Positions 33,976-64,000 of a DNA stretch of 64,000 nt are shown one piece after another (positions within the stretch are counted from its first letter, which is position 1; each line of letters starts with the position of its first letter). The position numbers were made by a program, and so were the translations under genes. Below the pieces are notes generated by a model that had not been told where the DNA came from, searched no databases, and was given only the letters and a program-made list of their open reading frames with translations. Source of the stretch: Kondoa subrosea (Eukaryota); contig BCIN01000003.1 of NCBI GenBank assembly GCA_039545335.1, positions 2,241,060 through 2,305,059 of the forward strand. The letters run 5' to 3'.

Positions 33976-34351
33976 CTTCTTTTGATTGTTTGCTTTGCGG
34001 CAGAGACATGCGCTTCACTTCCATCCTCGCGTTTGATTGTTCCTCTTTCGCTTGACATGGTCTATCTGGGTCTGGTAGCAGATGTAAGAGAGCACACGAG
34101 TCTTGCTATGGTTGTCTAGGAAAGAAAGTACTGAGAATAGACAGGAAGGCAGTCAGAGAGACCGAAATAAAACTGAAGTACAGTAGATTGCAAGGCAAGC
34201 CAAAGACAGAGGTGCAATGACAAAGGACAACGCAACGCAAGCAGCTGACAGTACACGAGGCAAGCGGAGGAAATGAAAGGTGACGCTGCTCAGCTGCAAG
34301 CCGCGACTTCAGGTGCGCGGCTCGCTTCAATTCTCCCCTTTGAAAAAGACA
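33976..34351. repeat. ~370-bp direct repeat copy 1 (duplicate of 36213-36589, includes a frameshifted 5' end of the aminotransferase)
   Basis: Near-identical by eye to 36213-36589; duplicated ATG at 34058 (-); gagacatg versus gagaccatg single-base deletion. Confidence 0.92.
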
Positions 34352-36297: not shown

Positions 36298-36589
36298 GGT
36301 CTATCTGGGTCTGATAGCAGATGTAAGACAGCACACGAGTCTTGCTATGGTTGTCTAGGAAAGAAAGTACTGAGAATAGACAGGAAGGCAGTCAGAGGGA
36401 CCGAAATAGAACTGAAGTACAGTAGACTGCAAGGCAAGCCAAAGACAGAGGTGCAATGACAAAGGACAACGCAACACAAGCAGCTGACAGTACACGAGGC
36501 GCCGAGGAAATGAAAGGTGACGGAATCGCTCCTCAACTACAAACGAAGACTTGCGCGTCTCGTTTGGATTCTCCTCTTTTGAGAAGACA
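36213..36589. repeat. ~370-bp direct repeat copy 2 (aminotransferase 5' end plus divergent promoter region)
   Basis: Matches 33976-34351. Confidence 0.92.
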
Positions 36590-39950: not shown

Positions 39951-40035
39951 TGAACCATAAGCGATTTGAACGCTTAACCTTCTGGAGCTTCAGAATGCTC
40001 TGGAATCAGACGCGCTACCGTTGCGCCAACGGTCC
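39951..40035 (-). tRNA. tRNA-Trp(CCA) with ~13-nt intron
   Basis: GGACCGT/ATGGTTC acceptor, GCGC-AACGGTA-GCGC D-arm, TCTGA-TT-CCA-G, intron agcattctgaagc, T-arm AAGCG-TTCAAAT-CGCTT, T5 terminator. Confidence 0.9.
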
Positions 40036-40257
40036 AATGTAAGCATCAGAAGGTCATACATATCTATAACATATGGTACAGTTTTTTGTAACCTACAAAA
40101 AACTGCATTAAGGCATCAAAGACTGACCTGGCAAAGACAATCGAGAATATCGTTTCATCGTTTCACTGCGGTTGTACCCAAACCAAAGTCGGATCCCAAA
40201 CGCTAAGGCAGGAGTTCTAGGCCTCTGTGTAGGCAAAATTAGCAGAAACTGATCTCT

Positions 40258-43200: not shown

Positions 43201-45258
43201 GCGGTAACCGATTATGAACTTCAATGTAAGCTGAGACCGCATCCTTCCAAACTCCAACTGGTAAACCCGCCTGATTGAGCATAGCAAGTACGGCATTATG
43301 TATTGTTTGATTCAATCGTTCAGCTATTCTTCTATTGAGGCGAACGAGCAACTGTTTTCTAATGAATGATGCCTTCTTCTTTCAATCAAATATGCTTCGA
43401 ATTCCGCTGAAGTGTATTCTCCTCCGTTACCAGACCTGGAAGTCTTGATTTTGTTCTTTGCTTGGGTAAAGATCCTGGCTTCGAAGAGTTTAAAAGCTTT
43501 GATTTGAAGCCTTCTTTATTGAATTAGACAAAATCGATAGACCAAAAAGTACTTTAAAGCACTCTTGATCGTACCGAAATAGCATATTTCAACACTTCTC
43601 GAGAGGTCTCCAATGGACCTTTTAAATCGGACAACACGAATTCGCCAGGAAGCAGTTCTTCTTCTGTTTCTTCAGATGAGAAGAAGGGAAACCGTTTCTG
43701 CTTTCCTGCCATACAAGGCTTGGCTTGCAGTCTTCAGCAATAGGATGGTAAGCTTTTATAGATGCACCATCGACCAATGATTTATCGATCAGGAACTTGA
43801 TCCGACCATTGCTAGCATGGCAGAGCCGCTGATGCAGAAGATGTTCTGTAAGCGGACGATTGCGTGCTTTTTCTTGAGGGCGAATGATGTGACCGTCTAG
43901 GTAAGCAAGTCCGTCTTTGTGTTTTGACGCTGTAACGCCACTTTTCCTTGACGATCGTAGAAGCGCATAGATGTACCCTTCGTATCAACTTTCATGTTAA
44001 GAGTAGATGTTAGATCTAAGATTGAAAGAAGTTTGGAAGACAATTCAGGGACATGTAACGCTTTTGGGAAAGTGAAGATCGGCAGAGATCTCTGTGCAGG
44101 TTGAAAGCGAAAGGACTCAATGCCATATATTGCAAACTTTTCTACTCCAGCTGTCCCTATTGTACCACTACTCTCTCTGTACTGAGCTAACAAAAATCCA
44201 TCGTTGATTATTGTGCTTGTTGCTCCAAAGTCTGCACAGAGCGTGTCAGAACGAGTTATGGTACGCAAGGGAAGACTTGCGGTCAGCATGGCTTGAGGGG
44301 TTTCTGCATCCTGATAGTTTGGCATGAGAAGATTGCTTGAATTTTGTAAATTCTGGTTCATCTTTCCTTTCATCCTTGTTTTCTTCAACGAATGCCTTGA
44401 TCACAAAATAATTTTCTATCGCGTGTCCGTTTCCATGTAGCATATAACCTCTTTTTTCTTCCTTTTCCTTAGCTTTAGAGGAAGAGGTAGAAGACACAGG
44501 GTAATGAATCGCTTTGCTTGCAACTTCTTGTTTTACCGCTTCTGGTTTGTATCTTGTCATTTGAGCTGCATTTTGTAAGGTATTGATAACACCAGCCATT
44601 GACAGATCAGGTTGGCCTGCTAGATTGGAAGCAAATTGCTGGAAAGACTCGCTTTCTGATCCGGAAAGAGCGTTCAGAACAGAATAGCGTTGCGTCTCTT
44701 TCACCAGTTCGCTAACAGTAAAGCCGACCGAGGTTCGAGAAGAGTATGGAGGAAGTAGATTGATTGGATCATCAGATGGGTTTTTGCAGGTTGCCAACAG
44801 AGTTTCTGCTAGACGAATTGCTTTGGGAATAAGAGACCATATAGAATTTTCTGGATCATGCTTCAGGTTGAGCAATTCAGACATGGCATGATAGCGACCA
44901 GCGCTAATTGGCATAGTTTTCTGTCCCTTGAGGATCGCATAAGCTTCGACAGGATCTCTAATTGACTGAATCAGAGTAGCGTGTTCAGAGTCGATGTATC
45001 GACGCAAGAGATCCAAAGCTTTGTTGTTCGCTGCTTGCATTTCCAGCGGAGGACGTTCGATAGGTTGTTCAAAGATATCTTGAACGTTTGCTTGAAGGCA
45101 AAGAGAGATAAGCTGGTTCTCCCATGCTTTCCCAATTATTGGAGTTGGTACTGCATGCGTTGCGGGAAAGAATGATTTTCTTATAGGTTTCTTCTGACAT
45201 TCTCGACGTTGAATGTTTGCTGTTGGCAGCTTGAAGACAATTACTTTGCGTGAGCCAT
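40258..45258 (-). mobile_element. Degenerate Ty1/Copia retrotransposon A (gag-PR-IN-RT-RH, stops and frameshifts, LTRs not identified)
   Basis: gag 44246-45040; PR ADFGATS; IN AERLNQT and VFGCPA; RT VYVDD; RH YTDAAFA..KSTSG; IN-before-RT order. Confidence 0.92.
41617..42121 (+). mobile_element. ~500-bp insertion interrupting RT of element A (LTR-like fragment)
   Basis: Removing it restores ...PGVDYNEFKAPVA; contains TATAAA and a CT-rich tract; shares a 25-nt block with 52563-52587. Ends uncertain. Confidence 0.6.
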
Positions 45259-45289: not shown

Positions 45290-45494
45290 TTTACAGGATG
45301 TGAAGCAGGATGACAGTTGAGGTCAGAGTTGAAGGTCAAAACGGAAACTTTAGGGCGAGATACTTCTTCTTCTCGAGCAATAGCTTAGAGAGCTGTATCT
45401 CGCAGGTATGAGTTGTACATATAACGTGCAACACAGCAATAGCTTAGAGAGCTGTATCTCGCAGAGCACTATCATTCTCTGAAGGTTATGAGCC
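45290..45494 (+). mobile_element. Orphan Copia LTR end plus PBS (family E), no gag downstream
   Basis: 30-bp direct repeats 45376-45405 and 45435-45464, followed by ...CTGAA and the PBS GGTTATGAGCC at 45484-45494. Left boundary uncertain. Confidence 0.75.
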
Positions 45495-47009
45495 TTGTGT
45501 TTCTCTAACTATTTGCTCTATTTCACTTCAGAGAATATAGCGACGAGACCAAGCGTGCGACAGGTGGACGAAAAATTAACCATAAAACAAGAGAGAAATA
45601 GGATCAACATCGCTTACTCAACCCTGCTATCTACCCAATCCGCTGTCCACCAATAGCAGCGTAGTGATGGCAGGCTGTTTCCAAGCACAGACTTGGTGCC
45701 ATCAAAAAGCAGATAAGCAACTAAGCTTCATATATTGAGTTTGTAGCATGAGAGAAAGTGCCCAGCAGTGCTCGAGCGAAATTCAAAAGGTTGAAGTTCC
45801 GTTTGAATGATAATGATCAGGAACGGAGGGTTTTCTCTGCCTTGGAGCAAGCCTTGCTCGACTGAAGCTTGCTCGACTTGAAGAGATCTCCTTGAAAGAA
45901 CAAGTAATAACGGTAGGTGCCTCTCACGATGGGTATCTTGAAGGAAAAGGAGAAAAGTAGGGATTCAGCCAGGGGAGCCAATAGAAGACCAAAGAAGACG
46001 GCTTGAAGAGTGGGACAGAGCAAATTGATGCGGAGGCCCTGTAGAAAGAGTCCGTCAGGACAATTGATTTAGATCAGCAGAGATTAGCTTAATATTGCTG
46101 AAGTGGGCAATAAATCGGGAGGATCCAAACTTTTTGTCCCAGAACGTTGCCCAGTTTTCCGTTCGTCTCTTATTTCCTACCATGCAATAAGTATGTCGAG
46201 ACTTCACAACCGTGTCATAGCATCATTCTGTAAGATATCAGCTAGTGAGCATTACAACATGATGCCACAAGAGCTGAGCTGAGCTGCAACTTTGTACAGG
46301 AATGTCATATCTCAAAGCTCTTTTGGATGTTACGCCTACACTACACGATATAGCCTTCTCTTTGTCATCGCCTTTCGAAACGTCCTCTTCCCTGTTCGCG
46401 TTCTGGGAGGTTGCTAATATCACGATGTACTCTCTCCAACACTCCTGTACGTGATCTTATACAAGGATCGAAGGAGCTTTAAGTTTTGATTATAGTGCAA
46501 TTTGCAGCGATATATCTCATGCATGGTAGGTATGATGAGCGTCCAGCCGGACTGGGCTCATTCGTGTCTAACTTTCCATTGGATCTCTTTAGTTCCTGTA
46601 GTTCAAGCATCTAGGATGACCGATGCTCGCAAGTACTTGGCAGAACATTTGCAGCTCGCACTGTACTGCCTGTATTAGGCCAATTCATAAGTTGAGCGAA
46701 GTAGCAAGAATGTGTAAGCCCACAAAGTAAAGTACTTTGTAATCGCTCTAACATACGATTGCTAGCTTTTCACACATTCGATCGATGTGAGACTGTTCGA
46801 GAGTCAATTGGCGCTCTTCCCTTTGTTGATGATTTCTAAATTGACTACGCAACACTATATAGATCAGGAATCATGGCAGAAATGAGTCTAAGGTTTTGTC
46901 TTTATCGCTTGTCTCTGAACCCGTCTGAATCTCGAAATATGCTAGTTCGGTACGATCAAGAGTGCTTTAAAGTACTTTTTGGTCTATCGGTTTAGCCTAA
47001 TTCAATTAA

Positions 47010-47154
47010 TGTTGAAAGTCAATGGTCGTTACAACTCTCTCAAATCTTCCTTTCTGCATTTCCTTTGCTACGCGTCATCTACGCGTCACGTCATCCTACG
47101 CGTCACGTCATCCTACGCGTCACGTACTTCACTTCCAGCGCACGCGATTTGTCA
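47010..47154 (+). repeat. Inverted partial copy of a B-family LTR (U3 start)
   Basis: TGTTGAAAGTCAATGGTCGT... is the reverse complement of 47588-47607 and continues with the same CGCG-rich repeats. Confidence 0.85.
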
Positions 47155-47164
47155 GTGGTGGGCC

Positions 47165-50100
47165 AGATAATAGAGCTGCTAGACTTCTCAAACTTGTTGG
47201 AATACAAGTATAGGATCATATTACATACCTGCTAGACTTCTCAGACTTGTTGGAATACAAGTATAGGATGAGAAGAAAAGCAGGAAGAANGAGAAAACTC
47301 GAGTTTTATGTACAGCTACCAGCCCAGATTGAAANCATACGACCCGGTACATCCCGATGTGGCAACCGTTGATATCGAAATGGGTCTCGACCGTTCATAT
47401 TGAAATAAGTCTCGACCAATCGCGTCGCGCTTGATGATGTAGAGTACGTGACGTGTAGGATGACGTGACGCGAAGTCGTGTAGGAAAAAGACGCGACGCG
47501 TTAAGATGACGCGACGTGTTGAGATGACGCGACGTGTAGATGACGCGTAGGAAAGAAGATGCAGAGAGGAAGTTTGAGAGATTTGTGACGACCATTGACT
47601 TTCAACACTCCCACTCGTTAAACTTGACCAAACTTCCGTAGACCCATTGACGTGCGATGTTTGACAAAGGTTTCTCTTGGTAAGGCTTTGGTAAGTATGT
47701 CGGCGATCATATCAGCTGTCGGACAATGAGTGATGTCCATTTCGCCAGCTGCAATCTTTTCACGAATAAAATGATGGTGAATGGCGATGTGCTTGGTGCG
47801 ATCATGCATACCAGGATTGTGGCATAAACAGATGTTGCCATAGTTGTCGTTCTTCAGAGGTAGAGGACCAATGACAGGACGTTGTAAGTTTGATAAGAGC
47901 AACTTCTTCCAGATAGCTTGTTTTGCCATATCTGAGCTTGCCATATATTCTGCTTCGCAAGTAGATTTGGCCACGGTAGGCTGACGCTTTGATTTCCAAG
48001 AGACAGTGTCGCCATTGACCTGGAAGATGTAGCCTGTAGTTGAGCGTCTTGTGTCCAAACATCCAGCATAATCCGCATCCGCATAGCCAAGTACCAAAGG
48101 TGCATCAGGATTAAGACCATAGCAGAGAGAAAGATCCAAAGTGCCTTTGAAATAGCGAAGAAGATGTTTGGCTGCTGCTACCTGCTGAGAGCCCCATCCT
48201 GAACTGTATTGTGACAGCTTGTTGGCAGCATAGGCACATTCTGGGCGAGTGACTTGAGTAGCATACATTACGCTGCCGACCACACTTTGAAAGGGATAAT
48301 CTCGATTCTTGGCAATGTCTTCTGGAGTCGGCTTCGTCAACTGACAGCCAGGATCCATAGGAGTGGTGACTGGATTTGCATCTTGCATACCGAACCGTTC
48401 CAAGACTTCACGAAGGTATTTTTCTTGACAAAGCCAGAGAAAACGTTTTTCTCTGTCGCGTTTGATCTGAACCCCAAGGAAGTAATTGATAGGGCCACGA
48501 TCTTCTAGCTTGAACCTATTGCTCATGTTTTTCTTGAAGTCATCCTTGGCTGAAACACTATTTGAAATGATAATTGAGTCATCGACATGGATTCCAACCC
48601 AGACGAAATCGTTGGCTTTTCTCCATAAATACAGACATATGTCGGCGTCGGCATGTTGGAAGCCTTGACTGAATATCCACTTGTCGTACATGCCATTCCA
48701 TTCGTGAGGTGATTGTTTGAGACCATAGAGTGATTTGTGCAAAAGAGCGACCATGTCTTTATCTCCTCCAGATTTCATGCCTTCAGGTATTTCCATGTAG
48801 ACCTTCTCTTTGAGAGTAGCGTTGAGAAAAGCCGTGTTGACATCACATTGATCTGCTTCCAAATCTTCTCGAGCAACGAAAGAAAGCAGTACTCTTGTTG
48901 TATCTCTGTGAGTGACTGGAGCATAGGTTTCACCATAGTTGACTCCTTCAACTTGACTTTAACCATCGGCGACAATACGACACTTTCTCTTGACCAATTC
49001 ACCTTCAGCATTTAGCTTGTTGTCAAAGAGATATTGTGACCTGACAATAGCTTCATCTGCAGCAAGAGTTGATCTTGGAATTTTGCTGAAGGTACCAGCT
49101 TGTATGAGAGCATTCTGTTCTGCTTCTATGGCCAACTCCCACTCCTTCCCATATTTGACTGCATCGCGGTAGCTTCTTGGTTTGGAAAGAGAGACCTCGA
49201 CATTCAGAGCAATAGGATCTTCATCAGACTCTTCTTCTTCAGATGATGATTCAGAGGTATCTGATAGGTTGAGGGTTGTATGAAGCTTGGCAGGAGGATT
49301 TGGAGAAGGACCTCTACCATAGAAGGATGTAGGAGTGCGATCTCTTGTACTTCGTCTGATTGTAGTTTCCGGTGCAGCTGAAGAATTTTCTGGAGAAGGT
49401 GAAGGTGATACAGATGGAGATGATACTTGAGTGTCGGGAATCGCATTGACAGATTCATCTTCTCCCACAGACTCTCCCACAGTTGCTGGATTTTCTGACT
49501 TTTGTAGATCAGGAATAACGACTCCCACATGATTCAGACGTTCAGGTAAATCCAGCTTGAGAATGTTCTTGGTGTCTTGAGGTGTAAATGATTCCTCCCA
49601 GTGCAAGACATCTCGAACGACCACAATCTTGCGACTGTCAGGGCAGTAGACACGATAACCCTTGATTCCATCTGGAAATCCAACGAAAAATCCCAACTTG
49701 GCGCGAGGATCCAATTTGCTAACACGCTTGTCCTTGTTGACAGTATAGTAGACTCTGCTGCCCCAGACTCTGAGATGACTGAGATCAGGGACTTTGCCAT
49801 AATATTTAGCATAAGGAACAGCTGATTCGACGGCAGAAGTTGGCGAGCGGTTTCGAAGATAGACAGCATGCGAGAAAGCTTCTGGCCAAAGAAATAACGG
49901 AAGACCAGACTCGTGCAGCATAGTTCTACCCATGTTTGCAATGGTGTAATTCATACGTTCGGCAACACCAAGCTGTTCATGTACGCCTGGTACAATGAAT
50001 TCTCTTTTGACACCATCTTCTTCCAGAAATTCAGTGAGATTCCGGTTCTTGGTTTCTGTACCGTTGTCGGTTCGAAAGGCAAGTGCCCAGTTTCTTTTTC

Positions 50101-52446
50101 GGCAGTGGCTTTCCAAGTTTTGGTTTTCTGCTTGACTTCGATTGGAGACTTGAAGAAAATAATTTTGACAAATCGAGAATTATCATCAATAAATGTTGAA
50201 TAATAACGAGAGCCACCCAAAGACAGAGTGCGAAAAGGACCAGCCATATCGGAGTGAACCAATTGAAGAACAGAAGAAGCACGAGAAAGAGATTGATGAG
50301 GAAAAGGGAGACGTTTGCCTTCGCCAATAACACAAGCGATAGAATTTGAATGTGTTGAACAGGTACAAGAGATGCCAGTAACCCATTTACTCGCTACTGC
50401 CTTTTGCATGTCTACTCCATTCAAATGTCCCCAACGTCTGTGAGAAAGACGCGAAGGGTCAGATAGAGTAGACAGCGCAAGGGTAGGAGAGGGCGCACTC
50501 TTTCGAATGATGGTAGCGTCGACTTTGTAGAGTTTGCCAAGTCGAGAGCCAGTTAAAATGGTCTTGTTGCTGGAGTGTTCGACCAGATATGCCATGGAAG
50601 GATGAAATTCGACCATGAGATCTTCGCGAGAGTCTAGTAAGGTTGAGACCGAGATGAGATTGCGAGGAAGACCAGGAACATGAAGACAATTCTTGAAAGT
50701 TCTGACGCCATAGCCTTCAGCATAGAATTGCAAAGTACCGGTAGCGATAGCTGAGAGCTGAAGACGACCAACATTGACAGGGATATGTTGAGCCAAAGTA
50801 GTGTATTCAGTCAAAGCAGGACCATCAGCAGTCATATGTTCGGTGCAGGCCGAGTCCAAACAGTAATCTTCAATGAATTTATAGGGTTTGAACCCGTTGA
50901 ATTGTTGTGAGCTTCGACACAGAAAGCTTCGGCAGATTCGACATTGTTTGCTAATGCTGATTGCATAATAGAAGGATTGTTCTTCATGATATCTTTCAAC
51001 TTGGTGAAACAGTTGTTGGTTCGATGGGTCTCCTTTCTCAAGCAGGGAGCATAAGTACACCATTCTGCTTCAGGAATGGTTGATTTGCGAACATTTGGTC
51101 TACCGTTTCTATTGTTGTTGACACGAGGTGGACGAGAACTTTGTTGAGTAGTAGTGTTCAAAGCAATAGCAGAAGAAGAGGAGATAGAACGAGTGTTGAG
51201 TTCTTCTTCTTGAGCCAGAATACGACGAGTGAGATTTGCAGTTGTGAAAGTTTCATCGGTATCATTGGCCACGAAAGAATTGCGGAAAGTCTGTCTGATA
51301 CACTTCAGGAAGCGAATTGAGCAAGAGAAAATTGATCATCTTGTCAGATATCTTGAAGACAGCATTGTCCAGCTTGGAGCGAGTTCGAAGGAAAGAAGTG
51401 ATATGTTCTTGCATAGTACCACCAGTGTAACGAGTGTTGACAGTCGACATGAGAAGCTTGCCTTGATAGACAATACCAGTGGGACCATGCACATCTTTGA
51501 GCTTCTTCTCAGCAGTGGCAGCCAGTTTGGTGTCCATGATATGCTTGAATTGAACTTCTTCCACAGTATCTGAATGAAATAGTAGGCTTCCTTGTTCTTC
51601 TTGTCCCATGCATTGATCAAGAAGTTGTTGGCCTGAATGTTTGCCTGATTGACATTGCCACCAGTAACACTTGCAGGCCTGACGCTTGCACCTCGAGCAA
51701 CATCCCACAACTCTTTGACATCCAAGAAGCCTTCCATTCTAGCAGACCAGACGTCATAGTTGTCCATGTTTAGATGGGTGATGTTGATTTTGAGGTCAGT
51801 CATATTTCAAATTTGACCGATAAAAGAAACGATTGATAAAGAAGATTTAGAATGAGTTGAAAGATAGTTCAGATTGAAATTGGTCTGAATTGAAATGTTT
51901 GTTGATAGTTGAATTCAGGGGACTAAAGCTGAATTTGAGTTTGAACCAGATAGATGTTGGTTGAAATTGAAATTGTTTTGATGTTGGACGATCCCGGAGT
52001 CCGAATGAGGAGAAGTGCTTGAGCAGTTGAATGAATAGAAGGAAAGAAGGATTGATTGAGGTAATCTTCAAGCACTTCCAAGGCTCATAACCTAAGATAA
52101 ATAGAGCTGCTAGACTTCTCAGACTTGTTGGAATACAAGTATAGGATGAGAAGAAAAGCAGGAAGAAAGAGAAAACTCGAGTTCTATGTACAGCTACCAG
52201 CCCAGATTGAAATCATACGACCCGGTACATCCCGATGTGGCAATCGTTGATATTGAAATGAGTCTCGACCGTTCATATCGAAATGAGTCCTGACCAATCG
52301 CGTCGCGCTTAATGAAGTTAAGTACGTGACGTGTAGGATGATGACGTGACGCGAAGCCGTGTAGGAAAAGACGTGACGCGTTGAAGTGACGCGACGTGTT
52401 GAGATGACGCGACGTGTAGATGACGCGTAGGAAAAAAGATGCAGAG
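47165..52446 (-). mobile_element. Ty1/Copia retrotransposon B, frameshifted gag-pol, 3' LTR 47165-47607, 5' LTR 52093-52446 (U3-truncated)
   Basis: Paired LTRs; PBS at 52082-52092; PPT GAGTGGGAG next to 47607; gag from 51803; PR LDSACTEH; IN HSDMAG/RTDNGTE/VAER; RT IHVDD; RH YADADY. Confidence 0.95.
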
Positions 52447-52459
52447 TTAAGTCGTGTCT

Positions 52460-53760
52460 TTGCTGCAGGGTAGGTCTGACAATGACCATAGACTTACGTT
52501 TAGGGAACTTTGTGTAAGGCAAGCAGCTCCCACAGCTCTTGTTCTTCGTTCATCCTTCTTTCCTGCAATCGAAGCGGTTAGATACTGATTCCTGATTCCT
52601 GCAGGTACACCTTCCCTCGACCACAAGCATTGGACCTTCTTCATTCACCCTCATCTACAAATCTGCTTTCCAACTGGTGGATGTTCTTCAGACTCCTAAT
52701 GGGACCCATCATCTTTACTTGAGTCGGACTACCTTTCGATTCCCTTTGATAGAGCTGTGCCGTTAACCACAAGGCTAAATCGTGATCCCTCGCAAAAAGG
52801 AATACAATTTTAACTGATGAGGTTAAAACGTTTAACGGACTAGTTGTGTCGAAGAATGATGGTTTGAGACCCATCAAGAAGCTTTGCTGGATTTGAAAAC
52901 CGCTTTATGATTGCAGAAAAGAATGATGGTAAAAGAGCAAGAGCTGTAAGAGCTGCTTGCTTTGTACAAAGTTATGAAGAAGCTTCTTTTGAAAGATGTT
53001 GAATCAGATACTGTACTATTGAGATCTTGCTCGTGAGCCATCGTCATAAGGACAACCGGTCTTGAATGACGGTTGTCTTGAATGATAGCCTGCTATCAAT
53101 CGACCAGAAGGTACTTGTTACACAGAACAACACTTGAGAAGGAGTGTGAGATGTAAAGTCGAGTTGAAGCAAAGAGACTGTTGTGTAGAGCGAAGGAGAA
53201 GGAGCTAAATAGCTTGACATGACATCCTGTGGTCAAGAAGAGTACTTCAGCAGATGTCAATGGCCAAAGATACGAACTGGAACAAGACTTAGCTTTGGCA
53301 GAAAAAGGAAGGAGAGTGATCTCTATCAGCAAGTCAAAGGGGATCACGAAAGGTGCCTGTGTTTAGCGGCACAGCCCTGTCACTAAGTGCGAGTGATTGC
53401 ACAAGTAGCTTGCAGGCTCAAGAGAGATCACTCTAGTAAAGCAGTGATATACCTATGGAGCAGGATGTGTCAGCAATACCACCAGGAGAAGACTGCTACT
53501 TTTCGAAGAATCTCAATACGCTATATTGTATAAGGACAAGATAGGGCAGTACTATTGCCATGATTGACGACAAATCGATGATGACAAATGTTCGATTTTC
53601 CAGACGAGAGTCGGCATGACGATCACCGGATCAAAGCTTATTTTTTTGTCGTATCGCGCAGCGCGAGACTCGCATCAATGTAGGCAACACTTTAGTAAGT
53701 GTCAGATGCTAAGGTCTAGGGGCGTCTTAGATTGCAGATGTCAGAAGCGCTTCGGAAATT
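52460..53760. other. Decayed repeat/LTR-element remnants, not classifiable
   Basis: Short matches to the 41.6-42.1 kb insertion (ctgcaatcRaagcggttagaYactg; gtcagatgctaag) and retro-UTR-like composition; no recognisable domain. Confidence 0.35.
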
Positions 53761-56700
53761 CGTGTGAGTGCTTCTTCTTGCTACTCTGTTCAGGTCAATA
53801 TAGAATCGTTACGTGAAAGATGTGTGAATTGTCGTGGTGAGGGCTCAAGCGGATTCGACATGGCTACAGCTATTAGTTAGTCTATCAAGCTTTCCCGAGA
53901 GATGTTATGATGTATTGAATGCACTTTGGCAGTGCACCGTCGTTATTGTTATTCACTGGAGTTCCTCTGATTAGAATGGATGACATTTATACACAAGCTA
54001 TCTACCTGGAGTTCCTCTGATTAGAATGGATGAGGAACTCCTACCCGTAATTCCACCTTGTGATCCTGCTTCCGTTTCATATTCCGAATTCCCGAGTCTT
54101 CCCTTATACTCCCTTATACTGAGATGAACGACAAACCTCACACTCCCCCTTCGTGAATCTCAGTCAATCCGCAAGCTCTCCGATGCTTTTCCACTACTCC
54201 TCTTGACAAAGGTTTAGTGAGCATGTCCGCTATCATGTCTCCCGTATTGATGTACGACACTGAAATGATCCCTTTTGATTGATAGTCTCTTATGAAATGA
54301 AAACGATTGTCGATATGCTTGGTCCTTTCATGATGAACAGGATTGTAAGTCAGAGCAATGGCTGGCTTATTGTCGGCTTTGAACGATGATGGACCATTTA
54401 TAGGCAACCCGAGCTCATCCATGAGTTGACGACATGCTTTAGCCTCTGTTGCTGCTTCAGACATAGCAACATATTCAGCTTCTGTTGATGACAAGACATT
54501 TTCCATCTGTTTCTTGCTCTTCCAAGCGATAGCACCACCAGCTAAAACATTGACATATCCACCAGTCGATCGCCTGTCATCGCTGTCTTCGTTGTAATTG
54601 GAGTCTGAATATATAATTGGGGTGAAGTCATCAGTTGCTTTATATGTGATGCCTAAGTTTGCAGTGGTGGAGAGGTATCGATATATGTGCATGACCGCTC
54701 TGTAATGATCCATACTTGGGTCATCGTTGAATTGTGCAGCTAGAGAAGTATTGTAGGCAATGTCGGGACGAGTCCAGCGAAGGTGTTGAAGTTCTCCTGT
54801 GAGACCACGATAATCACCGAGATATGGTTCTTCATCTTCTCTTCGTTTGTGGAGCTTGATATTTGGAGGCAACGGAGTATAGACAGGCCGACAATTCGTT
54901 AGACCTTGATTGGCTACTATCTTCTCAATATAGCGCTGTTGAGATATGGAGCACTGTCCGGGCTGATGTTTGACTTCCATGCCTAGATGTTTTGTCATCT
55001 TCCCATTGTCTGTACATGGAAACCGGTCTTTGATTTCTTTCTTTGCCTGATCGATCATTGCAGGATTGCCAATCACAGCCATATCGTCCGTGTGAATGCC
55101 GATAGCAACAAACTCAGTTTCAGAACGCTTGATAAAAACGCAAGGGTCTGACAGGCATTGATGGAATCCTATTGAGACCAGGAAACCACTGAGCAGCTTA
55201 TTCCACTCTCGACTAGCTTGCTTTAACCCATACAGCGACTTGAGAAGGCGACAGACCAAGTGTTCCGATCCAGCTTGTTCGAAGCCCTTTGGTTGTTTCA
55301 TATATACTTCTTCGTTGAGAGGAGAATGTAGGAAAGCGGTAGTTACATCAAGAGAGTGTATATCTATTCCAAATTGAGCTGACCAAGCAAAGATCAAGCG
55401 CATTGATGCTGCTCTGATGTTAGGTGCGAAAACTTCAGCGAAATCAATTCCTTGCCGCTGAGAGAAACCTTTGGCGACTAAGCGAGCCTTGTAACGGACG
55501 ATATTGCCATCTGCATCTAGCTTAAGCGCATAGACCCAGCGATTGTCGACTACATTCGCTCCTTCTGGTAATTCTTGTAACTCCCAGGTATAATTCAGCA
55601 GCAAGCTCTTCACTTCCTCTTCCATGGCTTTCCTCCATGCGCTTCTATCAGATGATTTGAGAGCATCCCAGTAGTTCTCAGGAACAACTTTTGAGCCAAC
55701 CTCAGCGACCATACATTCGAATGTTCGTTGTAAGTCATCATCTTCTGTTGTATTGAGCTCCTCAGCCAAGTTTATGAATGCAGTTGAACATGCTCCATCA
55801 AGATAAGACGATGATAGATTGATTTGCTGAATATTTTGATTTGGGTATTTTAAGATTAACGGCTTTGTAGCTGGAGAAGGAGGAGGAGGACGAGGTATAC
55901 GAGTTCTAGGAATACGTTGCTTAGGTATCCAAGCTGGCTTGACAGACCGAGTCGGCTGTTGACGAATAACAGGGTTGCTCTTGACTACCGGCTCCCCCTC
56001 AACATCGACAAGGGCAGGCTCCCCCTGAAGCCCAGGATTTGGTACGTCTTCCATAGCAGCGGGAGGTTCCACCATTGAATCAGCTTCAGCTTTTTCATTT
56101 TCCGATTGGATTTCATTCGTTTGCCCCTGCAAATCATTCGGTGCTCGCTCATGCGGCTGAGTTGCTCCTGTGACAGGAGGCATGGACCCACCAGAAGGAC
56201 AATTCTCATCACTGTCTATTTCGCCCATGACATCAACAAACTTATCAGCTTCCTTTGCTGCATCAACGCTTTCGCTTGCATTTTCTTCCACAACATGATC
56301 ACTCTTTGCATCATTTTCTGGTATCCATCGAACGTCTCGATGTACCGTAACAGTGCGTCTTTCTTCGTCATACAACCGATAACCAGGCTGATCTTTTGCA
56401 AAGCCAACGAATCGCATAGCTTTTGATTTAGGCGATAACTTGTCTTTTCTTTCATCGATATGAGGATATGCAACACAACCGAACGGTTTTGTGTTTTCGA
56501 CTGAAATTTTCTTATCTGGGTAGAAACGCTGATCCGGTAAATCGAGATTGATAGCTGCAGAAGGTGTGATGTTTCTCATATCCACAGCCCATTGATAAGC
56601 TTCTAACCACAGGTTTCTGGGCAGATTAGCATCGTCCAATACAGTAATCACATCATTAACGAATGTGCCATTGGATCTTTCCACACCACCAGTTTGTTCA

Positions 56701-57797
56701 GGTGAGCGCACATTTGTTCGAATATGTCGAATTCCTTTCTCTGAGCAGAAATCGCGTAGACGGTGAGATTCAAACTCTCCTCCAGGGTCTGTAAGGAAGT
56801 TTAGGACTTTATAGCTGGTATGCCGTTCGATTAAGGTCACCCAAGCAATGAAAGCTGATGTTGCTTGACTCTTTTCTTGTAGACCTATCGTCCATCGTTT
56901 GGTGGTGCATTGGTCGTAGATATTGAAAACGTATCGATTATGTCCTATCAACGACTGAACTGGAAGAGGGCCTTGAAGATCTCCTTTAACAAGTTGAAGT
57001 GGTATTGTTGCTCTATCGTGGTTTCTTTGGTGCGGATGCGCTTTGGATTTACCTATGACACACGAAACGCAGAAGAAGTTTTCTGGTTTCTTCAGGTCAG
57101 TCGGCAATCCTTGAACGTATTGTCGTTTGCTCATGCTTTCGAGATATTTGGAATTCAGATGGCCTAACTTTCTATGCCATTGTTCGAAACTGGATAGATG
57201 ACACTCTTGACAAGTAGGTTTGGCTTGAAAGGTAAAGAGATTGTTTTGTTTATTCTGATAGATGCGGTAGATAATGCTTGAGCTTTCATTATCGATCAGG
57301 GTGAGAGAGTTGTTGGTAAAGAGTGAGTTGATTCCGTCCAAGCTTGCTTGACCAAGACTGAAGAGATTGGTGGTCAGACCGGGAACCAAATATGCTTTCT
57401 TCAGTATGAGAGGTACGCTTGTTCCTTCTGATTCCAGACATAGATTCACAGTTCCCTGATGCGTTGCATAGATAATGCTTCCGTTACCAATGCGGATTGG
57501 CATGGGTTTCGATAAAGGGATGATAGAAGAGAAGAGAGCAGAATTATTGATAAAGTGCGATGACGCTCCGCAGTCAGCAATGAAGCAATACGAGGTGGAA
57601 GGAGCAGTTATGCTCTGCATTGCAGACATATACAATGATTCTTCACCTTCTTGCCATGCAGCTACGTTTGCTGATTCCTGCTTGAGAGGTTCAGATTCAT
57701 TCTTCTAGAGCATGAGGAGAGCGAAGTAGATGAAGAAGAGTTGGACGTATAAGGTGTAGAGGGTCGACTCAATCCAAAAGTCACAAGAGTCTCATAT

Positions 57798-57947
57798 NNN
57801 NNNNNNNNNNNNNNNNNNNNNNNNNNNNNNNNNNNNNNNNNNNNNNNNNNNNNNNNNNNNNNNNNNNNNNNNNNNNNNNNNNNNNNNNNNNNNNNNNNNN
57901 NNNNNNNNNNNNNNNNNNNNNNNNNNNNNNNNNNNNNNNNNNNNNNN
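57798..57947. other. Assembly gap (150 N) inside the 5' LTR of D
   Basis: The 3' LTR equivalent (62861-62902) is only 42 bp, so the gap is probably over-sized. Confidence 0.85.
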
Positions 57948-58252
57948 TCTTCACTGAACTATATATTGAGAAGGATTGCAGGTAAGTGTACATAATACAG
58001 ACATAACTGAACTATATATTGAGAAGGATTGCAGTTACAGAAGGTTATGAGCCTTGAAGAGCTCGAAGATTGAACACTCCAACAATCTTCACCTGCGCAA
58101 AGAACCTTTATTCTATCCTTCTCCAGTCACCTTCAGTCACTTCACACTCTCATTTCACTGTCAGATCCTCTTTTGCAGATTCTCTTGAGTCAGTAGTTAG
58201 CAGAATCTCAATTCAACTCCTTTAAAATTCCAATCAACTTCAAGTCAGTCGA

Positions 58253-61200
58253 ATGGCAGGAGACGAGTCAAAGGAAGAATCAAAGATCATTGCTACACCC
58301 TCAAACGTTCAAGGGACTCAAACAAGGATGACTTTGCAAACTTATCAACAGCCAAAATTGATCATCTTCTCAGAAGATCAAAAGCTCAAAGATGGCAACT
58401 GGAGGAATTTCAAATCTATGATAGGAGACATCATGGTTCATCAACGCCTATTCAATATCTTGGATGGCTCAGAAACTTTGTCCAACACCCAAGATCCTCA
58501 ATCTTTCAACTACAAGAACTCAGATGCTTTAGCTCAATTACGTCTCAACGTCACTTCTTCCATTCGTCCGCGTATTGAGCNTTGTACTTTGGCATCAGAA
58601 GCATGGTCAATTCTACAAGAACAATTTGACCCCAAAGGAGGAGCAATCCCTTTTCAGCGCCTCTCGTCACTCTTCAATTGTAGACCAGATCAACACAATT
58701 CTCTCAAAGATTTCGTTACTGCTGTTCAAGATGCCAAACGACATTGCGAAGAAGTCGATATTCCCATTCCAGCAGTTATCCACAAGTATCTCTTGATCTT
58801 CAACCTTCCATCATCGTGTGCTATCATCTCCGAGATAATGATCAATACCTTGACCTCTCTATCCGTGGCTGATGTCGAAGCCAAGATCTCAGAGTTTGAG
58901 ATCAGGGAAAGCATGAAAGATGAAAAAGTTGCAATGTTGGCTGCAAGAGGAGGTATTTCAGGTGGTCATGTCAAAGCTCGAATGAAATGCACTGGTTGTG
59001 GACGAAACGGTCATTTGTTGGATGGTGACGGAGAAGGCAGATTTCGATGCTTCAAGAAATACCCCAACGATCGAAAACCTCGAATCAATGAATCTAAGCA
59101 AGATTCTGGTGCTCACAATCCGCAACCTGGCATTCAAGCAAACATTGCCGAGTCTCAAGAGCAAGAGGGACGTTTCAGCTTCTTGTCGCAAAGTCTTAGT
59201 ACTGAAATGAAAGGCAACCTTGCCGAATTTGATCCTTACTTGTGGATAGGCGACTGCGGTGCCTCATTCCATTTCACTCCTGCTATCGAACACTTCATTC
59301 ATCTGCATCCGTTGAGAACTCATATGCCTATCAAAGTTGGTAATGGAAATCGAGTATATGCTACTCATATTGGAACAATAAAAATCAACCTCATGCACAA
59401 GAATCAGCTAAAGTCACTTGAATTCAACAATGCATATTTAGTTCCTGGTCTATCAGCCAATCTCATTAGTCTGGGTCAAGCTAGTGTTCAAGGCATGACT
59501 ACAGTGATTCAAAATGGAACAATGAGCTGGCAAACAGCATCAGGTCAAACAGCACTCGAGATTCCGCTGTCATCATCAAACAGCCTGTTCAGCTTCAAAT
59601 CGATACCAAATAAAACAGCCAAAGAATGCCATATGACAGCCTTTGAGCAATGGCACAATAACCTTGGTCACATCAATGCAAAGTATCTTGAGCAACTAAG
59701 CCGCTCTGGTGTCCATGGCTTACCGACTGATTTGAAAGCCCCAAAAGGTTGGAGCTGCGAGCCATGCATTCTTGGGAAGATTAGAGCAAACCCTCACTAC
59801 TTGAACAACTTTAGAGCCAAACAACCGTTAGAATTGGTTCAAGCGGACCTACAAGGGCCTTATCCTGTTCAATCCATCATCGGCCATTTTCGTTATGTAC
59901 TGAAGATATATGACCAAGCCTCCAGCTTTCGTTTCGCTATTGGTCTACAAAACAAATCAAATGCTACATCGATGATTATAAGATGGCAGAAAGAAATGGA
60001 GAACTTACTTGATCTAAAACTTCAAAACTTTCACTTGAAGACCTTCCTAACTGATCCCGGTGGGGAGTTCAAATCCAATGCTCTGAGGGATCATTTTCAG
60101 GAATGTGGTGTCCGTCACGTATTCACCAATACTGACACGCCTTCGCAACAAGGGGGGGTAGAACGCACTGGTCAAACGTCAGAAAATGATGTGATAACGC
60201 TATTGCAAGATTCTGGCTTACCAAACAACCTGTGGTATGAATGCTATCGATACAGTATCGATACTAGAAACATTACTCCTTCTGCAGCAATCAAAGGTCG
60301 AGTTCCAGCTCAAGTCTTCTTCCCTAACAAACGGTACTCAGTTGCTCATTGTCGGCCATTTGGAGCTAAAGCTTACCCTCATTTTCACGAACACGAACGC
60401 AAGAATCGTTTGTCGCCCAAATCCAAACCAATGCGCTTCGTTGGTTATGGAATAAATCAACCAGGTTATCGGCTTTATGATGAAGAAAGCAAGACCGTCA
60501 AATGTTATAGAGATGTTGTATGGTGGAAAGAAAAGGAAGAAGAGCAAATCGAGGCACCGGAAGAGGAAGAGACTGAATCATTGGTCGAGCTGGATGGTAG
60601 ACCCTTTCCTTCCAGTGGGTGTTTGGATTCTCCTGCACCCGGTACCATTGAGCCGCAATTGCGAGCTACCGATGATCTACAGGACCCACCAGCGAACAGT
60701 GAGATTGCCGATGACACAATTCCGCAAGAAATCCGAAGTGAGGTTGTCAATCCAAACATCGATCAAACAATAAATCAGGGGGAGCCAGTGGATCAGGGGG
60801 AGCCAGCCCTTGCAGGTGATGAGGGGGAGAACAGAGTGGCAGTCGAAGAAGCGCCAGATAGAATGGTAGTCGCAGAAGAAGACAATTCAGCTCTGCCTCA
60901 AACCACCAAACAAAGAAAGACCTATCCTCCGCCTACACGTCATCAACCTGCAAGAGCCAGTAAGATAGCTACATCCTCAATCAAGCCAATTGTCAACTCT
61001 CGCGTCAAAACTCGTAGACTGTCTGAAGCAAAAACACCTTTGATTGTCAAGCCTTTTAGAGATACTAAATTATCCCTTTTCCTTTCCTCAACCATCAAGG
61101 ATGACAGACTATCAACAGCAATCAACCTAGCTGAGATCCTTTCTTCCTCGGAAGATGATGAACTATCAAACCTGTTTGAATGCTTGACCGCTGAAGTTGG

Positions 61201-62815
61201 AACATCAGTACCAGTGCCAGCACATTATTATGAAGCGTTGAGATCTTCCAATCACCCTCAATGGCGAAAAGCGATGGAGACAGAGATCAATTCCCTTCTA
61301 GACAATCACACTTGGGACCTAGAAGAACTGCCAGAAGACGCCAACCTTGTCCAAAACAGATGGGTATTCGCACTCAAACTTGATTCTGACGGCAATATAA
61401 TTCGATATAAAGCAAGACTAGTCGCAAAAGGATTCTCTCAGAGACCTGGAATCGACTACTTTCAACTATTTGCGCCCAATATACGTGCTGCTTCGTTCAG
61501 AACATTAATCGCTATAGCTGCCTTACATGATCTACCCATCCGCAAGATAGACATTACTACCGCTTTCTTGCATTCACCTCTAAAAGAAACGGTCTACATG
61601 CGCCAGCCTGAAGGTTTTATCAAGGAAGGTGAAGAGCACCTGGTCTGTAAACTTCAAAAATCGCTATATGGGTTGAAACAAGCTTCTCGCGAGTGGAACT
61701 TGCTCATTTCAAGTTTTCTTACATCCGTTGGTTTTCACCAGTGCATATCAGATCCATGCGTCTTCATAAGGCGATCAGAAGGTGGATTAGTTATTTTGGG
61801 TGTTCATACTGATGACATCTGCTTGGTTGGGAAACAAGAATCTAGTCAGCAAGCTATCGATGAAATCAATGCTCGTTTCCCTGCAGTCGAGAACACTTCA
61901 CCAAAGCACTTAGGTATGGAAATCGTACAAGATCTCAAGAATGGGACCGTCACTCTTTCTCAGAAGCAATACCTTAAGACAATCGTGCAGAATCGCAATT
62001 TCCCGGATTATAGACCAAAAAGGACTCCTTTACCTGCCAAACTAAAACTTCACAAGCGTTTAGATAGCGAGGAAAAGGGATGTATTGAAGAATATCGATC
62101 CATGGTTGGCGAATTGCAGCATGCTGCTCGTTGGTCAAAACCTGAAATAGCTTTTGCTGCATCGCTTCTCGGACAATTCTCAGCAGATCCTAGTATTCAT
62201 CATATGAAGGCTGCTGAACATGTCTTCCGCTATCTCTCCGGCAGTCTGAACAGTGGTTTAGTTTACAAAAGAGACGGGAATTCAGTTCCATGCATTTACA
62301 CCGATGCTAGTTTCTGTGAAGATCAAGACTTGCGAAAGTCCACTTCCGGCTATTTCAACATTCTTGCTGGAGCTGCAGTAGCGTGGAAATCGCACAAACA
62401 GATTGACAATGTAACATCAACAACTCAGGCGGAATTGATTGGCATGTCAGAAGGCGCAACTGAAGCAAAGGCCTGTACCATGCTGATGAACGAATTGGGA
62501 ATGGGCTGGAACGGTCCAATGCCTTTCAAGGGTGATAATCAGCCGTCAATCGACCTCATATTCAACCCAATTCACCATGAGAGAACCAAACATGTCGATA
62601 TTCGCTACTATTACACGCGAGATCTGCAATCTCAAGGTGTCATTGATGTTACGCATACACCAACCAACGATATGATTGCGGATATGTTGACAAAACCTTT
62701 GGGCAAGCAACTTTTGAGGAAGCATGCTGCAGGATGTGGACTTGTTGGCTTAGTCGAAGGGGGAGTTCTAGAGCATGAGGAGAGCGAAGTAGATGAAGAA
62801 GAGTTGGACGTATAA
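58253..62815 (+). CDS. Gag-Pol polyprotein of element D (1520 aa)
   Basis: Single ORF: PR DCGASFH, GAG-pre-IN WHNNLGH..CEPC, IN ADLQG/TDPGGEF/GVER, RT YKARLVAKG/SLYGLKQ/HTDD, RH YTDAS..RTKHVD. Confidence 0.96.
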   Translation: MAGDESKEESKIIATPSNVQGTQTRMTLQTYQQPKLIIFSEDQKLKDGNWRNFKSMIGDIMVHQRLFNILDGSETLSNTQDPQSFNYKNSDALAQLRLNVTSSIRPRIEXCTLASEAWSILQEQFDPKGGAIPFQRLSSLFNCRPDQHNSLKDFVTAVQDAKRHCEEVDIPIPAVIHKYLLIFNLPSSCAIISEIMINTLTSLSVADVEAKISEFEIRESMKDEKVAMLAARGGISGGHVKARMKCTGCGRNGHLLDGDGEGRFRCFKKYPNDRKPRINESKQDSGAHNPQPGIQANIAESQEQEGRFSFLSQSLSTEMKGNLAEFDPYLWIGDCGASFHFTPAIEHFIHLHPLRTHMPIKVGNGNRVYATHIGTIKINLMHKNQLKSLEFNNAYLVPGLSANLISLGQASVQGMTTVIQNGTMSWQTASGQTALEIPLSSSNSLFSFKSIPNKTAKECHMTAFEQWHNNLGHINAKYLEQLSRSGVHGLPTDLKAPKGWSCEPCILGKIRANPHYLNNFRAKQPLELVQADLQGPYPVQSIIGHFRYVLKIYDQASSFRFAIGLQNKSNATSMIIRWQKEMENLLDLKLQNFHLKTFLTDPGGEFKSNALRDHFQECGVRHVFTNTDTPSQQGGVERTGQTSENDVITLLQDSGLPNNLWYECYRYSIDTRNITPSAAIKGRVPAQVFFPNKRYSVAHCRPFGAKAYPHFHEHERKNRLSPKSKPMRFVGYGINQPGYRLYDEESKTVKCYRDVVWWKEKEEEQIEAPEEEETESLVELDGRPFPSSGCLDSPAPGTIEPQLRATDDLQDPPANSEIADDTIPQEIRSEVVNPNIDQTINQGEPVDQGEPALAGDEGENRVAVEEAPDRMVVAEEDNSALPQTTKQRKTYPPPTRHQPARASKIATSSIKPIVNSRVKTRRLSEAKTPLIVKPFRDTKLSLFLSSTIKDDRLSTAINLAEILSSSEDDELSNLFECLTAEVGTSVPVPAHYYEALRSSNHPQWRKAMETEINSLLDNHTWDLEELPEDANLVQNRWVFALKLDSDGNIIRYKARLVAKGFSQRPGIDYFQLFAPNIRAASFRTLIAIAALHDLPIRKIDITTAFLHSPLKETVYMRQPEGFIKEGEEHLVCKLQKSLYGLKQASREWNLLISSFLTSVGFHQCISDPCVFIRRSEGGLVILGVHTDDICLVGKQESSQQAIDEINARFPAVENTSPKHLGMEIVQDLKNGTVTLSQKQYLKTIVQNRNFPDYRPKRTPLPAKLKLHKRLDSEEKGCIEEYRSMVGELQHAARWSKPEIAFAASLLGQFSADPSIHHMKAAEHVFRYLSGSLNSGLVYKRDGNSVPCIYTDASFCEDQDLRKSTSGYFNILAGAAVAWKSHKQIDNVTSTTQAELIGMSEGATEAKACTMLMNELGMGWNGPMPFKGDNQPSIDLIFNPIHHERTKHVDIRYYYTRDLQSQGVIDVTHTPTNDMIADMLTKPLGKQLLRKHAAGCGLVGLVEGGVLEHEESEVDEEELDV

Positions 62816-64000
62816 GGTGTAGAGGGTCGACTCAATCCAAAAGTCACAAGAGTCTCATATTACTAATCAAGAGATGGAGATCCGGAATTCTGCAATCCTT
62901 TCTCTTCACTGAACTATATATTGAGAAGGATTGCAGGTAAGTGTACATAATACAGACATAACTGAACTATATATTGAGAAGGATTGCAGTTACAGAACAT
63001 TCCTCCTCTTCATGAATGGCGGAACATCTTGTGGGTATTTCTTGAAACATCTATACTTTCCTTCTTTGTTCCCATCCTCAAAATGACCAGTTTTCTTGCA
63101 GTAATTACATTTGAGTAAAGATCTTCCATTGCGGGAATCGTTGACCCTGCCAGCTAACAGAGCTGTTGCATTCTCTTCACTCTGCCTTCTCTCGAAATCA
63201 AGAATTCTTGATTCGACTGCTAATTCAGACATTTGAGGAAGTTCGTTGACCAAGATCTCTTTCACAATAGCGCAAGATGTCGGAAGATTGGCAACAAGTA
63301 GGAACTTATAGAATAGCGTTGAGACCTTTTCATCTACTTGTTCTAAAGCGGTCTTCCTGTCTCTCATGGCTGTAATGAATTCAGATAGGGTTGAGAATTG
63401 TTCGGGTCGGCAAAAGACAAATGCGTTCATGCGCTGAAATGGTACAGATCCTCCTTTTGGCGAGAATTGTTCTTGAAGTATAGACCATGCATCATAGGAA
63501 GTAGTACAATTCTTGATGTGTACCAGCACTTGATCCGTAACATTCATTCTTATGGATGTCAACGCCAATCGATCACTTCTGCCCCATGCCTTCAGATCAA
63601 TTTCATATTGAGCAAACTTTGGATCCAATTGATCTGAGCCTTTGATATTTGAAGAAGAAGAAGAAGAGAAGATCGGCGCAGTAGGTGGTTTGATCTCTCC
63701 AAGTGCAAAGTCTTCGAGCTGGTACGTTGCCAGGTAATCGCTAATGCGAACTTTCCAATCTGAGTAGTTGGTAGCATTTAATTTCTCTTGTACTTGAAAT
63801 GGCTTATAATTTGGTCGATCGTACAAAGAGGTCGACATCGTAAGATTGATGTGTGAGATAGATAATATCTCAGATGTAAAGATGATACAGATAGAATTTC
63901 AAGAAATTGAGATGATATTGATCCACTCAGTTGAGCAAATTTGAGATTCAAATGAAAATTTGCTGAAGGTCAGAGGAGCGCGCCAAGGCTCATAACCTGT

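Follow-up and report, generated by a model that had tools for sequence, protein, structure and literature searches.

Duplicated repeats, a putative intron and an adjoining hairpin in the long terminal repeats of Ty1/copia elements from Kondoa subrosea

RESULTS

Four nested Ty1/copia families share an LTR layout

We analyzed a 64-kb stretch of DNA (the window; contig BCIN01000003.1) from the 18.9-Mb, 27-contig genome of Kondoa subrosea. A nest of Ty1/copia elements extends from about position 40,200 to the right edge of the window, and the order of Pfam domains in families D, C, and B (gag, protease, integrase, and then reverse transcriptase [RT]-RNase H) is that of Ty1/copia (Pseudoviridae). 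The long terminal repeats (LTRs) of these three families and of a fourth, E, follow one plan. An arm assigned to the unique 3' region (U3) is followed by copy 1 of a short repeat, the probable R region, then by a GT..AG unit made of an AT-rich spacer and copy 2, then by a short unique 5' region (U5) and a primer-binding site (PBS). In the window LTRs, copy 1 ends in CAG, the unit begins with GT, copy 2 again ends in CAG, and the PBS follows 8 to 19 nt later. The unit is 50 to 59 nt long, and its excision leaves exactly one copy of the repeat. A scan of the 64 kb for AG/GT followed 30 to 150 nt on by an identical block of at least 12 nt ending in AG gave five matches, all of them these LTRs. 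The parts are as follows.

45355-45363, + strand: family E hairpin 5' arm, the likely U3; 3' arm at 45395-45403
45376-45405, + strand: E repeat copy 1, probable R, a 30-nt exact repeat ending in CAG; its 3' part pairs with the arm
45406-45464, + strand: E putative 59-nt intron with GTATGA donor, spacer 45406-45434, and copy 2 45435-45464 ending in CAG
47269-47283, - strand: family B hairpin 5' arm, plus an inner stem; closes on the CAG ending at 47229
47229-47269, - strand: B repeat copy 1, 41 nt, differing from copy 2 by one mismatch
47176-47228, - strand: B putative 53-nt intron with GTATGT donor, 12-nt spacer, and copy 2 47176-47216
54032-54041, - strand: family C hairpin 5' arm; 3' arm at 54017-54008
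54006-54033, - strand: C repeat copy 1, 28 nt
53956-54005, - strand: C putative 50-nt intron with GTAGAT donor, spacer, and copy 2 53956-53983
57953-57981, + strand: family D 5' LTR, copy 1; putative intron at 57982-58034
62890-62904, + strand: D hairpin 5' arm (3' LTR); 3' arm at 62923-62936
62908-62936, + strand: D 3' LTR repeat copy 1, 29 nt
62937-62989, + strand: D putative 53-nt intron with GTAAGT donor, spacer 62937-62960, and copy 2 62961-62989

Elsewhere in the genome we found three more families with this design, F, H, and I, bringing the number to seven. In F and H, which are homologous, a TATA box precedes the repeat start by 34 nt, and the arm falls between box and repeat.

A stable hairpin ends next to the putative splice donor

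A first-pass annotation of the window had proposed a hairpin in all four families, formed by an upstream arm and the 3' half of copy 1 and closing at the putative donor. All four stems were found where it had placed them, and they are more stable than dinucleotide shuffles. For the 60 nt ending at the donor, the folding free energies of E, B, C, and D are -22.4, -18.6, -17.6, and -18.6, with z scores of -3.3, -5.4, -2.4, and -3.6; 0, 0, 3, and 0 of 200 shuffles, respectively, were equally stable. The weakest stem is that of C, for which shifting the folded segment by one base gives z of -1.6 (13/200 shuffles). Taken together, the 60-nt hairpin folds have z scores of -2.1 to -5.6 and a stem ending 1 to 3 nt before the GT. 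Closure at the donor thus holds to within these few bases, and the stem reaches exon position -1 only in B and D; in E and C it closes at -3, leaving the final AG unpaired.

The hairpin depends on the arm. The 60 nt ending at copy 2, or RNA beginning at copy 1, folded no better than shuffles. Ten host introns chosen by a heuristic all lacked the repeat, and their best duplex (-9.9 kcal/mol) was not comparable; at the gathering score no Rfam family covered the LTRs, the sole match in 39000-64000 being a tRNA.

Relatives in metagenomes show two designs

We scanned metagenomes for CAG/GTR, a CAG 38 to 62 nt on, and a PBS; the repeat, the hairpin, and the TATA box lay outside the pattern. Since the pattern selects donor and acceptor, the counts give no estimate of prevalence. 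Of 69 matches, 45 had the repeat, as did 32 of the 33 with copia protein homology, the one miss being cut by a contig end. Among the 24 repeat-less matches, 5 overlap a tRNA-Met called by ARAGORN, one is a decayed member, and others are chance matches. A control on viral contigs from phages with a looser pattern yielded only chance matches: 0 of 29 testable matches had the repeat (best repeat score, 6). Judging from PBS and intron size, the metagenome contigs are probably of fungal origin.

Nineteen of the 45 repeat-bearing matches resemble the window LTRs (one-intron design). In the other 26 (21 found by script and 5 reassigned on inspection), copy 1 is split by a second insert of 48 to 56 nt, and copy 2 equals the two halves joined. 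The inserts of eight family representatives all end in AG; seven begin with GT and one with AT. This split-copy arrangement was absent from 513 kb of phage control and 445 kb of control sequence from the Kondoa genome, and we found no two-intron design among the loci examined in that genome. Because copy 2 consists of the joined halves, it is a DNA record of a spliced copy 1. By the same reading, copy 2 could be written from the RNA 5' end only if the second intron is spliced too.

The matches and our own families fell into 30 similarity clusters. After four cut by contig ends were left out, 26 families remained for analysis, 18 from the 19 one-intron clusters and 8 from the 11 two-intron clusters. 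The last 14 exon bases formed a significant duplex with sequence upstream of the repeat (at most 2 of 200 shuffles) in 15 of the 18 one-intron families but in none of the 8 with two introns (Fisher p = 1e-4). Two of the three one-intron misses, L178 and L228, show clear hairpins (z of -3.0 and -3.7), the boundary of L178 having been mis-set in the duplex test. The hairpin and the second intron are thus mutually exclusive. Among the 18 one-intron families, 17 have a stem ending 1 to 4 nt from the donor, 17 have the pairing partners of the last 14 exon bases located upstream of the repeat start, and 17 have an arm that favors copy 1 at equilibrium.

An RT tree of 40 rows (8 one-intron, 6 two-intron, and 26 others; omitted were four short rows and two loci that gave no match) left its backbone unresolved, and its count of four changes per class did not improve on shuffles. 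Both designs are spread over several deep branches, and the tree does not resolve the order in which they arose.

Six of the loci (L182, L201, L219, L220, L222, and L231) have RT/RNase H upstream and a PBS downstream and are head-to-tail chains sharing LTRs; the chain at L220 joins two LTRs merely 66% alike. L174 is a deleted derivative, its two-intron LTRs (85% identical) being separated by only about 2.3 kb that contains RT/RNase H remains.

The unit resembles a host intron, and the two repeat copies change together

The GT..AG unit is 47 to 64 nt long in the 26 families versus 51 to 66 nt for the 10 heuristic host introns, giving it the ends and the host-like length of a spliceosomal intron. 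In the metagenome set the GT..AG ends were imposed by the search pattern; they were not in the seven families of this genome, and CAG/GT is present in all of these unselected families. A CTNA branch-point motif occurs in 21 of the 26 families and CTRA in 15.

TGTA occurs in the spacer of 12 of 26 families versus 0 of 10 host introns (p = 0.015; background, 9%), and the spacer may hold a poly(A) element. We did not adopt UGUA as a fungal poly(A) element, which the passages available of PMC4360255 and PMC12810187 did not confirm. The spacers of E, F, H, I, and D also form a small second stem around TGTA..TGCA/TACA (45406-45434; L039, L047), so TGTA may be kept for pairing and not as a protein site.

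When related elements were compared (13 pairs, not independent), 27 differences were shared by both copies, 7 were confined to copy 1, and 8 were confined to copy 2. The concerted changes include indels in each half of a split copy 1. The first-pass annotation had also suggested covariation as a check on the stem. In pairwise sequence alignments of 13 pairs, one change on both sides of the stem was found in each of F/H and I/L217, beside broken pairs (see Discussion). Distant pairs could not be aligned in register (many pairs appear broken while each member folds its own stem) and were not counted as support. With base-level covariation being thin, the structural case lies in unrelated sequences forming the same stem.

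Core promoter signals point to the repeat start

In 6 of the 26 families (7 once L178 is corrected), TATA[AT]A begins 41 to 30 nt ahead of the repeat start; the five other windows yield one match between them. The first repeat base is the A of a YYA in 12 of 26 families, as against 0 to 4 at other offsets. In Cryptococcus, TATA boxes lie at -40 to -35, according to the portion available of bioRxiv 10.1101/2023.07.18.549460. The positions of the TATA and initiator-like signals indicate that the repeat is most likely R and the arm U3, and that transcription most likely starts at the repeat start, downstream of the arm. For B, C, D, and E themselves, this start site is proposed from their relatives.

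Introns are kept in both LTRs of some elements, and one-copy LTRs are common among older copies

The introns are kept in both LTRs of C, D, H, L223 (LTRs 98% identical), L175, and L193. Among older copies of B and E, the one-copy form with an exact junction predominates: by inspection, two of six distinct E insertions are two-copy, as are one B LTR and one decayed B LTR of about 10, LTR copy counts in this genome being lower bounds. Such one-copy LTRs would be the predicted error product of a jump to copy 1 during reverse transcription. L040 has a PBS-bearing junction without a repeat and looks chimeric.

Genomic setting of the elements

The remaining parts of the elements are as follows.

45292-45483, + strand: E LTR, 192 bp, TA..AA ends, two-copy form; ends set from solo copies elsewhere with 5-bp target duplications
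45484-45497, + strand: E PBS, complement of host tRNA-iMet nt 26-39
47165-47607, - strand: B 3' LTR, two-copy form, TG start, last bases degenerate
47618-51806, - strand: B gag-pol region, copia order, split into several frames
52079-52092, - strand: B PBS
52093-52446, - strand: B 5' LTR, one-copy, lacking exactly the 53-nt unit; 93% identity to the 3' LTR; 5' start missing
53947-54142, - strand: C 3' LTR, 196 bp, TG..CA, target duplication ATAAC
54138-57704, - strand: C pol (protease, integrase, RT, RNase H)
62990-63898: C gag, on the far side of the inserted D
63984-63997, - strand: C PBS
57703-58042, + strand: D 5' LTR, with a run of N at the expected arm position
58043-58056, + strand: D PBS
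58226-62815, + strand: D gag-pol reading frame, copia domain order
62756-62765, + strand: D polypurine tract, identified by sequence
62766-62997, + strand: D 3' LTR, 232 bp, TT..AA ends, target duplication CATTC
40240-40271, - strand: fifth LTR remnant, H-like, with the repeat end and U5 only, behind an RNase H fragment

The D element sits inside C and separates C gag from C pol; the C 5' LTR starts at the right edge of the window and is identical to the C 3' LTR. The LTR pairs of C and of D are identical wherever readable. Both elements have two LTRs and 5-bp target duplications (ATAAC and CATTC), which, like the polypurine tract, are features of Ty1/copia elements. TG..CA ends are a common, not strict, Ty1/copia feature. 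Here they are found only in C; the ends are TT..AA in D, TA..AA or TA..TA in E, TA..TA in H, and TG..TA in B, and most metagenome members end in CA. The noncanonical ends come with proper 5-bp target duplications (62766-62997, 45292-45483; L047/L054; L007, L009).

The PBS of B, C, D, and E comprises 14 nt complementary to nt 26 to 39 of the host tRNA-iMet. The predicted half-tRNA priming is that of the Ty5/Hemivirus type, an assignment made by PBS. The tRNA-iMet gene itself (L030:1473-1600, contig C1 of this genome, G000) has a 56-nt insert in the T loop that reads as a spliceosomal intron (GTAAGT, CTGAC, TAG), and ARAGORN calls tRNA-Met(CAT) there only after the insert is removed. A 5'-truncated inverted copy lies about 6 kb away (L031).

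A host glucosidase exon had its best named matches in basidiomycetes, Sporidiobolales and other Pucciniomycotina first (50 to 56%). In this genome, copia copies form about one nested cluster per contig or lie at contig ends, which suggests that they mark centromeres.

Window, 40200-64000: cluster of copia elements
G000 contig C1, 2.25 Mb; C2, 1.84 Mb; C6, 1.38-1.39 Mb; C10, 0.345 Mb: copia clusters
Ends of contigs C4, C6, C7, C13, and C14: copia copies

Several smaller features accompany the nest. A tRNA gene adjoins the start of the cluster (39951-40035, - strand); ARAGORN called it Ser, but its sequence, interrupted by a short intron, reads as Trp(CCA). Another small repeat family, which lacks the two-copy design, occurs in both orientations (41827-42040, 52506-52587, 52898-53070; L040). 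Directly beside the B 3' LTR is an inverted partial copy of the B LTR start (47010-47155), preceded by a 76-nt piece that matches integrase-region sequence at 43515-43590. The host-gene region contains a 380-bp direct repeat of 89% identity (33976-34351 and 36214-36589).

DISCUSSION

A probable self-regenerating intron

We consider it probable that these LTRs, ordered U3 arm, copy 1, GT..spacer-copy 2..AG, U5, and PBS, carry a spliceosomal intron that regenerates itself with the help of a hairpin that steers strand transfer. Transcription would start at the first base of copy 1, about 35 nt past the TATA box, which leaves the arm outside the RNA 5' end and makes the repeat roughly the initial 30 nt of the RNA. 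There, the LTR intron would be spliced out to leave cap-R-U5-PBS, a step that we infer for the Kondoa families and for which relatives hold fossil evidence. Splicing would give an otherwise intronless 5-kb RNA a cap-proximal intron and would probably remove the 5' poly(A) element. The RNA 3' end would consist of U3, copy 1, spacer, and copy 2, ending there unspliced. Minus strong-stop DNA (U5 and R) may then anneal to either copy, as follows from standard LTR reverse transcription. Only a jump to copy 2 would copy the spacer and copy 1 and so rebuild the intron in both new LTRs, copy 2 being rewritten from spliced copy 1 in every cycle; a jump to copy 1 would yield one-copy LTRs. The hairpin, formable only at the RNA 3' end, would sequester copy 1 and steer the jump to copy 2, so that it most likely hides the wrong copy and the intron is rebuilt, not lost. 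In the second design, a copy 1 split by another intron would reach the same end without a hairpin.

The first-pass annotation had anticipated part of this scheme. Its proposal that the hairpin masks copy 1 and directs strand transfer to copy 2 appears largely right, given the preference of the arm for copy 1 (D excepted) and the absence of the hairpin where a second intron disrupts copy 1. Intron regeneration, which we see as the central point, goes beyond it.

Alternative roles for the hairpin

A role for the hairpin chiefly in RNA processing at the 3' LTR, on the same R-intron-R layout, is possible but unlikely. As in foamy virus, the stem would block U1 at the donor or hide the branch point or AG of copy 1, and the intron would be kept and the poly(A) site used. 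The closeness of the stem end to the donor would suit this role, as would the branch-like CTNA and the CAG within copy 1; foamy virus, in the sections available of PMC3694450, has U3-dependent refolding at a donor in R. Folding does not support control of the donor by the stem: predicted pairing of positions -3 to -1 and +1 to +6 shows no significant difference between 3' and 5' contexts (p = 0.32 and 0.73), which weakens this role. At the 3' LTR of two-intron families, moreover, both donors would stay unspliced although a hairpin is absent.

We regard as improbable a TAR-like leader at the RNA 5' end, as the first-pass annotation had it, with transcription starting upstream of the arm and the arm switching between copies. 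In its favor, the arm is complementary to both copies, with a preference for copy 2 in family D, and a strict TATA box that would fix the start is lacking in B, C, D, and E. The TATA and initiator signals over 26 families nevertheless indicate the repeat start, with the arm partners upstream of it in nearly all one-intron families, and the arm never precedes copy 2. An arm within R would also give strong-stop DNA matching the arm and copy 1, deleting the intron in each cycle. The annotation had counted a start downstream of the arm against its hairpin; such a start means instead that the hairpin exists only at the RNA 3' end, where the device works better.

It is very improbable that the layout is a by-product, with R duplicated by slippage when reverse transcriptase stalls at the U3/R hairpin and with a unit that has incidental GT/AG ends and is never spliced: one-copy LTRs do exceed two-copy ones in B and E, and splicing is predicted from DNA, but unit length is held to that of host introns, CAG/GT recurs in every unselected family, two-intron families have copy 2 as a precise splice product with no hairpin, and both copies change together.

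Several observations weigh against intron regeneration as set out above. Splice, RNA start, and RNA 3' end are all predicted from DNA, and the direct splice fossil comes from other organisms and is of their intron 1. Strict TATA is missing at the expected place in 20 of 26 families, including B, C, D, and E, and the strict CTRAY branch motif occurs in just 6 of 26. The poly(A) role is read from the TGTA enrichment, and the L193 spacer is 7 nt long. L192 has the one-intron design with no hairpin; the D arm favors copy 2 at equilibrium (0.98 versus 0.06), and in several families the arm pairs partly with both copies. Beside the both-side changes there are two broken pairs in F/H and one in I/L217, so that classical covariation is thin. 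Deletion between the repeats would produce one-copy LTRs just as well, and the two LTRs of B differ in form, an outcome that one round of reverse transcription cannot yield. Finally, nothing that we saw explains how two-intron elements avoid splicing at the 3' LTR; cap-dependent splicing would be a guess.

Comparison with known systems

Ty5 and Drosophila copia, of the Hemivirus type, are likewise Ty1/copia elements primed by half-tRNAiMet. Here, in contrast, R is doubled around a GT-AG unit, U5 is just 6 to 22 nt long, and several families lack TG..CA ends. We know of no LTR intron in Ty5 or copia. The TAR and poly(A) hairpins of HIV-1 are contained within R and arise at both RNA ends; the likeness is a stable hairpin adjoining R, whereas the hairpin described here requires the U3 arm and is predicted only at the 3' end. 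Introns can be gained by tandem duplication of an AG/GT site, the ends of the duplication supplying donor and acceptor. That gain is a single event, whereas here the duplication would be renewed in every replication cycle.

Foamy virus (Schrom et al. 2013, PMC3694450), in the same sections, places its donor within R, upstream of the presumed poly(A) element, and forms a structure that is not the same at the two RNA ends, with U3 present only at the 3' end. It shows splicing-independent U1 binding and has no LTR acceptor and a single R, whereas here an acceptor lies 47 to 64 nt downstream and R is doubled. We rejected membership in the foamy virus type on the duplicated R and the acceptor paired with the donor inside the LTR. 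Penelope-like elements keep a 5'-untranslated-region intron in a terminal repeat, a retention termed highly unusual and of unknown significance in the passages available of PMC8557442. Their RT is of another class, and they have no integrase, tRNA primer, true LTR, or duplicated R. A PLE-type RT, with a GIY-YIG nuclease or none, and pseudo-LTRs mark that group; the RVT_2 and rve domains found here led us to reject that membership. The GalEa Conserved Hairpin Site of ascomycete copias is also a conserved hairpin near where the 5' LTR ends; it follows the LTR, replaces the PBS, and is reported as absent from Basidiomycota in the part available of PMC5445492. With a PBS present and the hairpin inside the LTR, we rejected this assignment as well.

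We found no description of this LTR design in the literature searched, although supplements, Repbase/GyDB entries, and subscription papers could mention it. The strings "intron" and "splic" are absent from the main text of two surveys of fungal LTR elements (PMC5445492, PMC3248453), and "splice" was not found in the available portion of a survey of LTR structure (PMC3601003). The elements are copia, and their LTR device appears to be undescribed.

Implications

LTR elements are taken to lose their introns as a rule when they are reverse transcribed, and the usual indicator assays build on this, for example with Tto1 (PMC3061985, in the portion available). The sole exceptions cited are Penelope-like elements. 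In the elements described here, one or two introns persist in both LTRs of many families whose LTRs cannot be aligned and which occupy separate RT branches, and self-regeneration, if true, would break the rule. We think it likely, if with slightly less confidence than for the mechanism itself, that this is a widespread design of fungal copia elements in which a duplicated R lets introns survive reverse transcription and a U3-R hairpin or a second intron forces transfer to copy 2. The mechanism would explain how identical LTRs can serve as promoter on one side of an element and as terminator on the other, and it would give the hairpin a testable role in acceptor choice at first-strand transfer. 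R and the start site would be readable straight from DNA.

Basidiomycetes accumulate little mRNA from intronless genes, according to the passages available of PMC3744415 and PMC8379801. The benefit of an LTR intron would be expression in these intron-dependent hosts, which would account for the expression of long intronless retroelement RNAs in fungi where RNA without introns is degraded. Such LTRs may, in turn, donate ready-made 5' introns to host genes.

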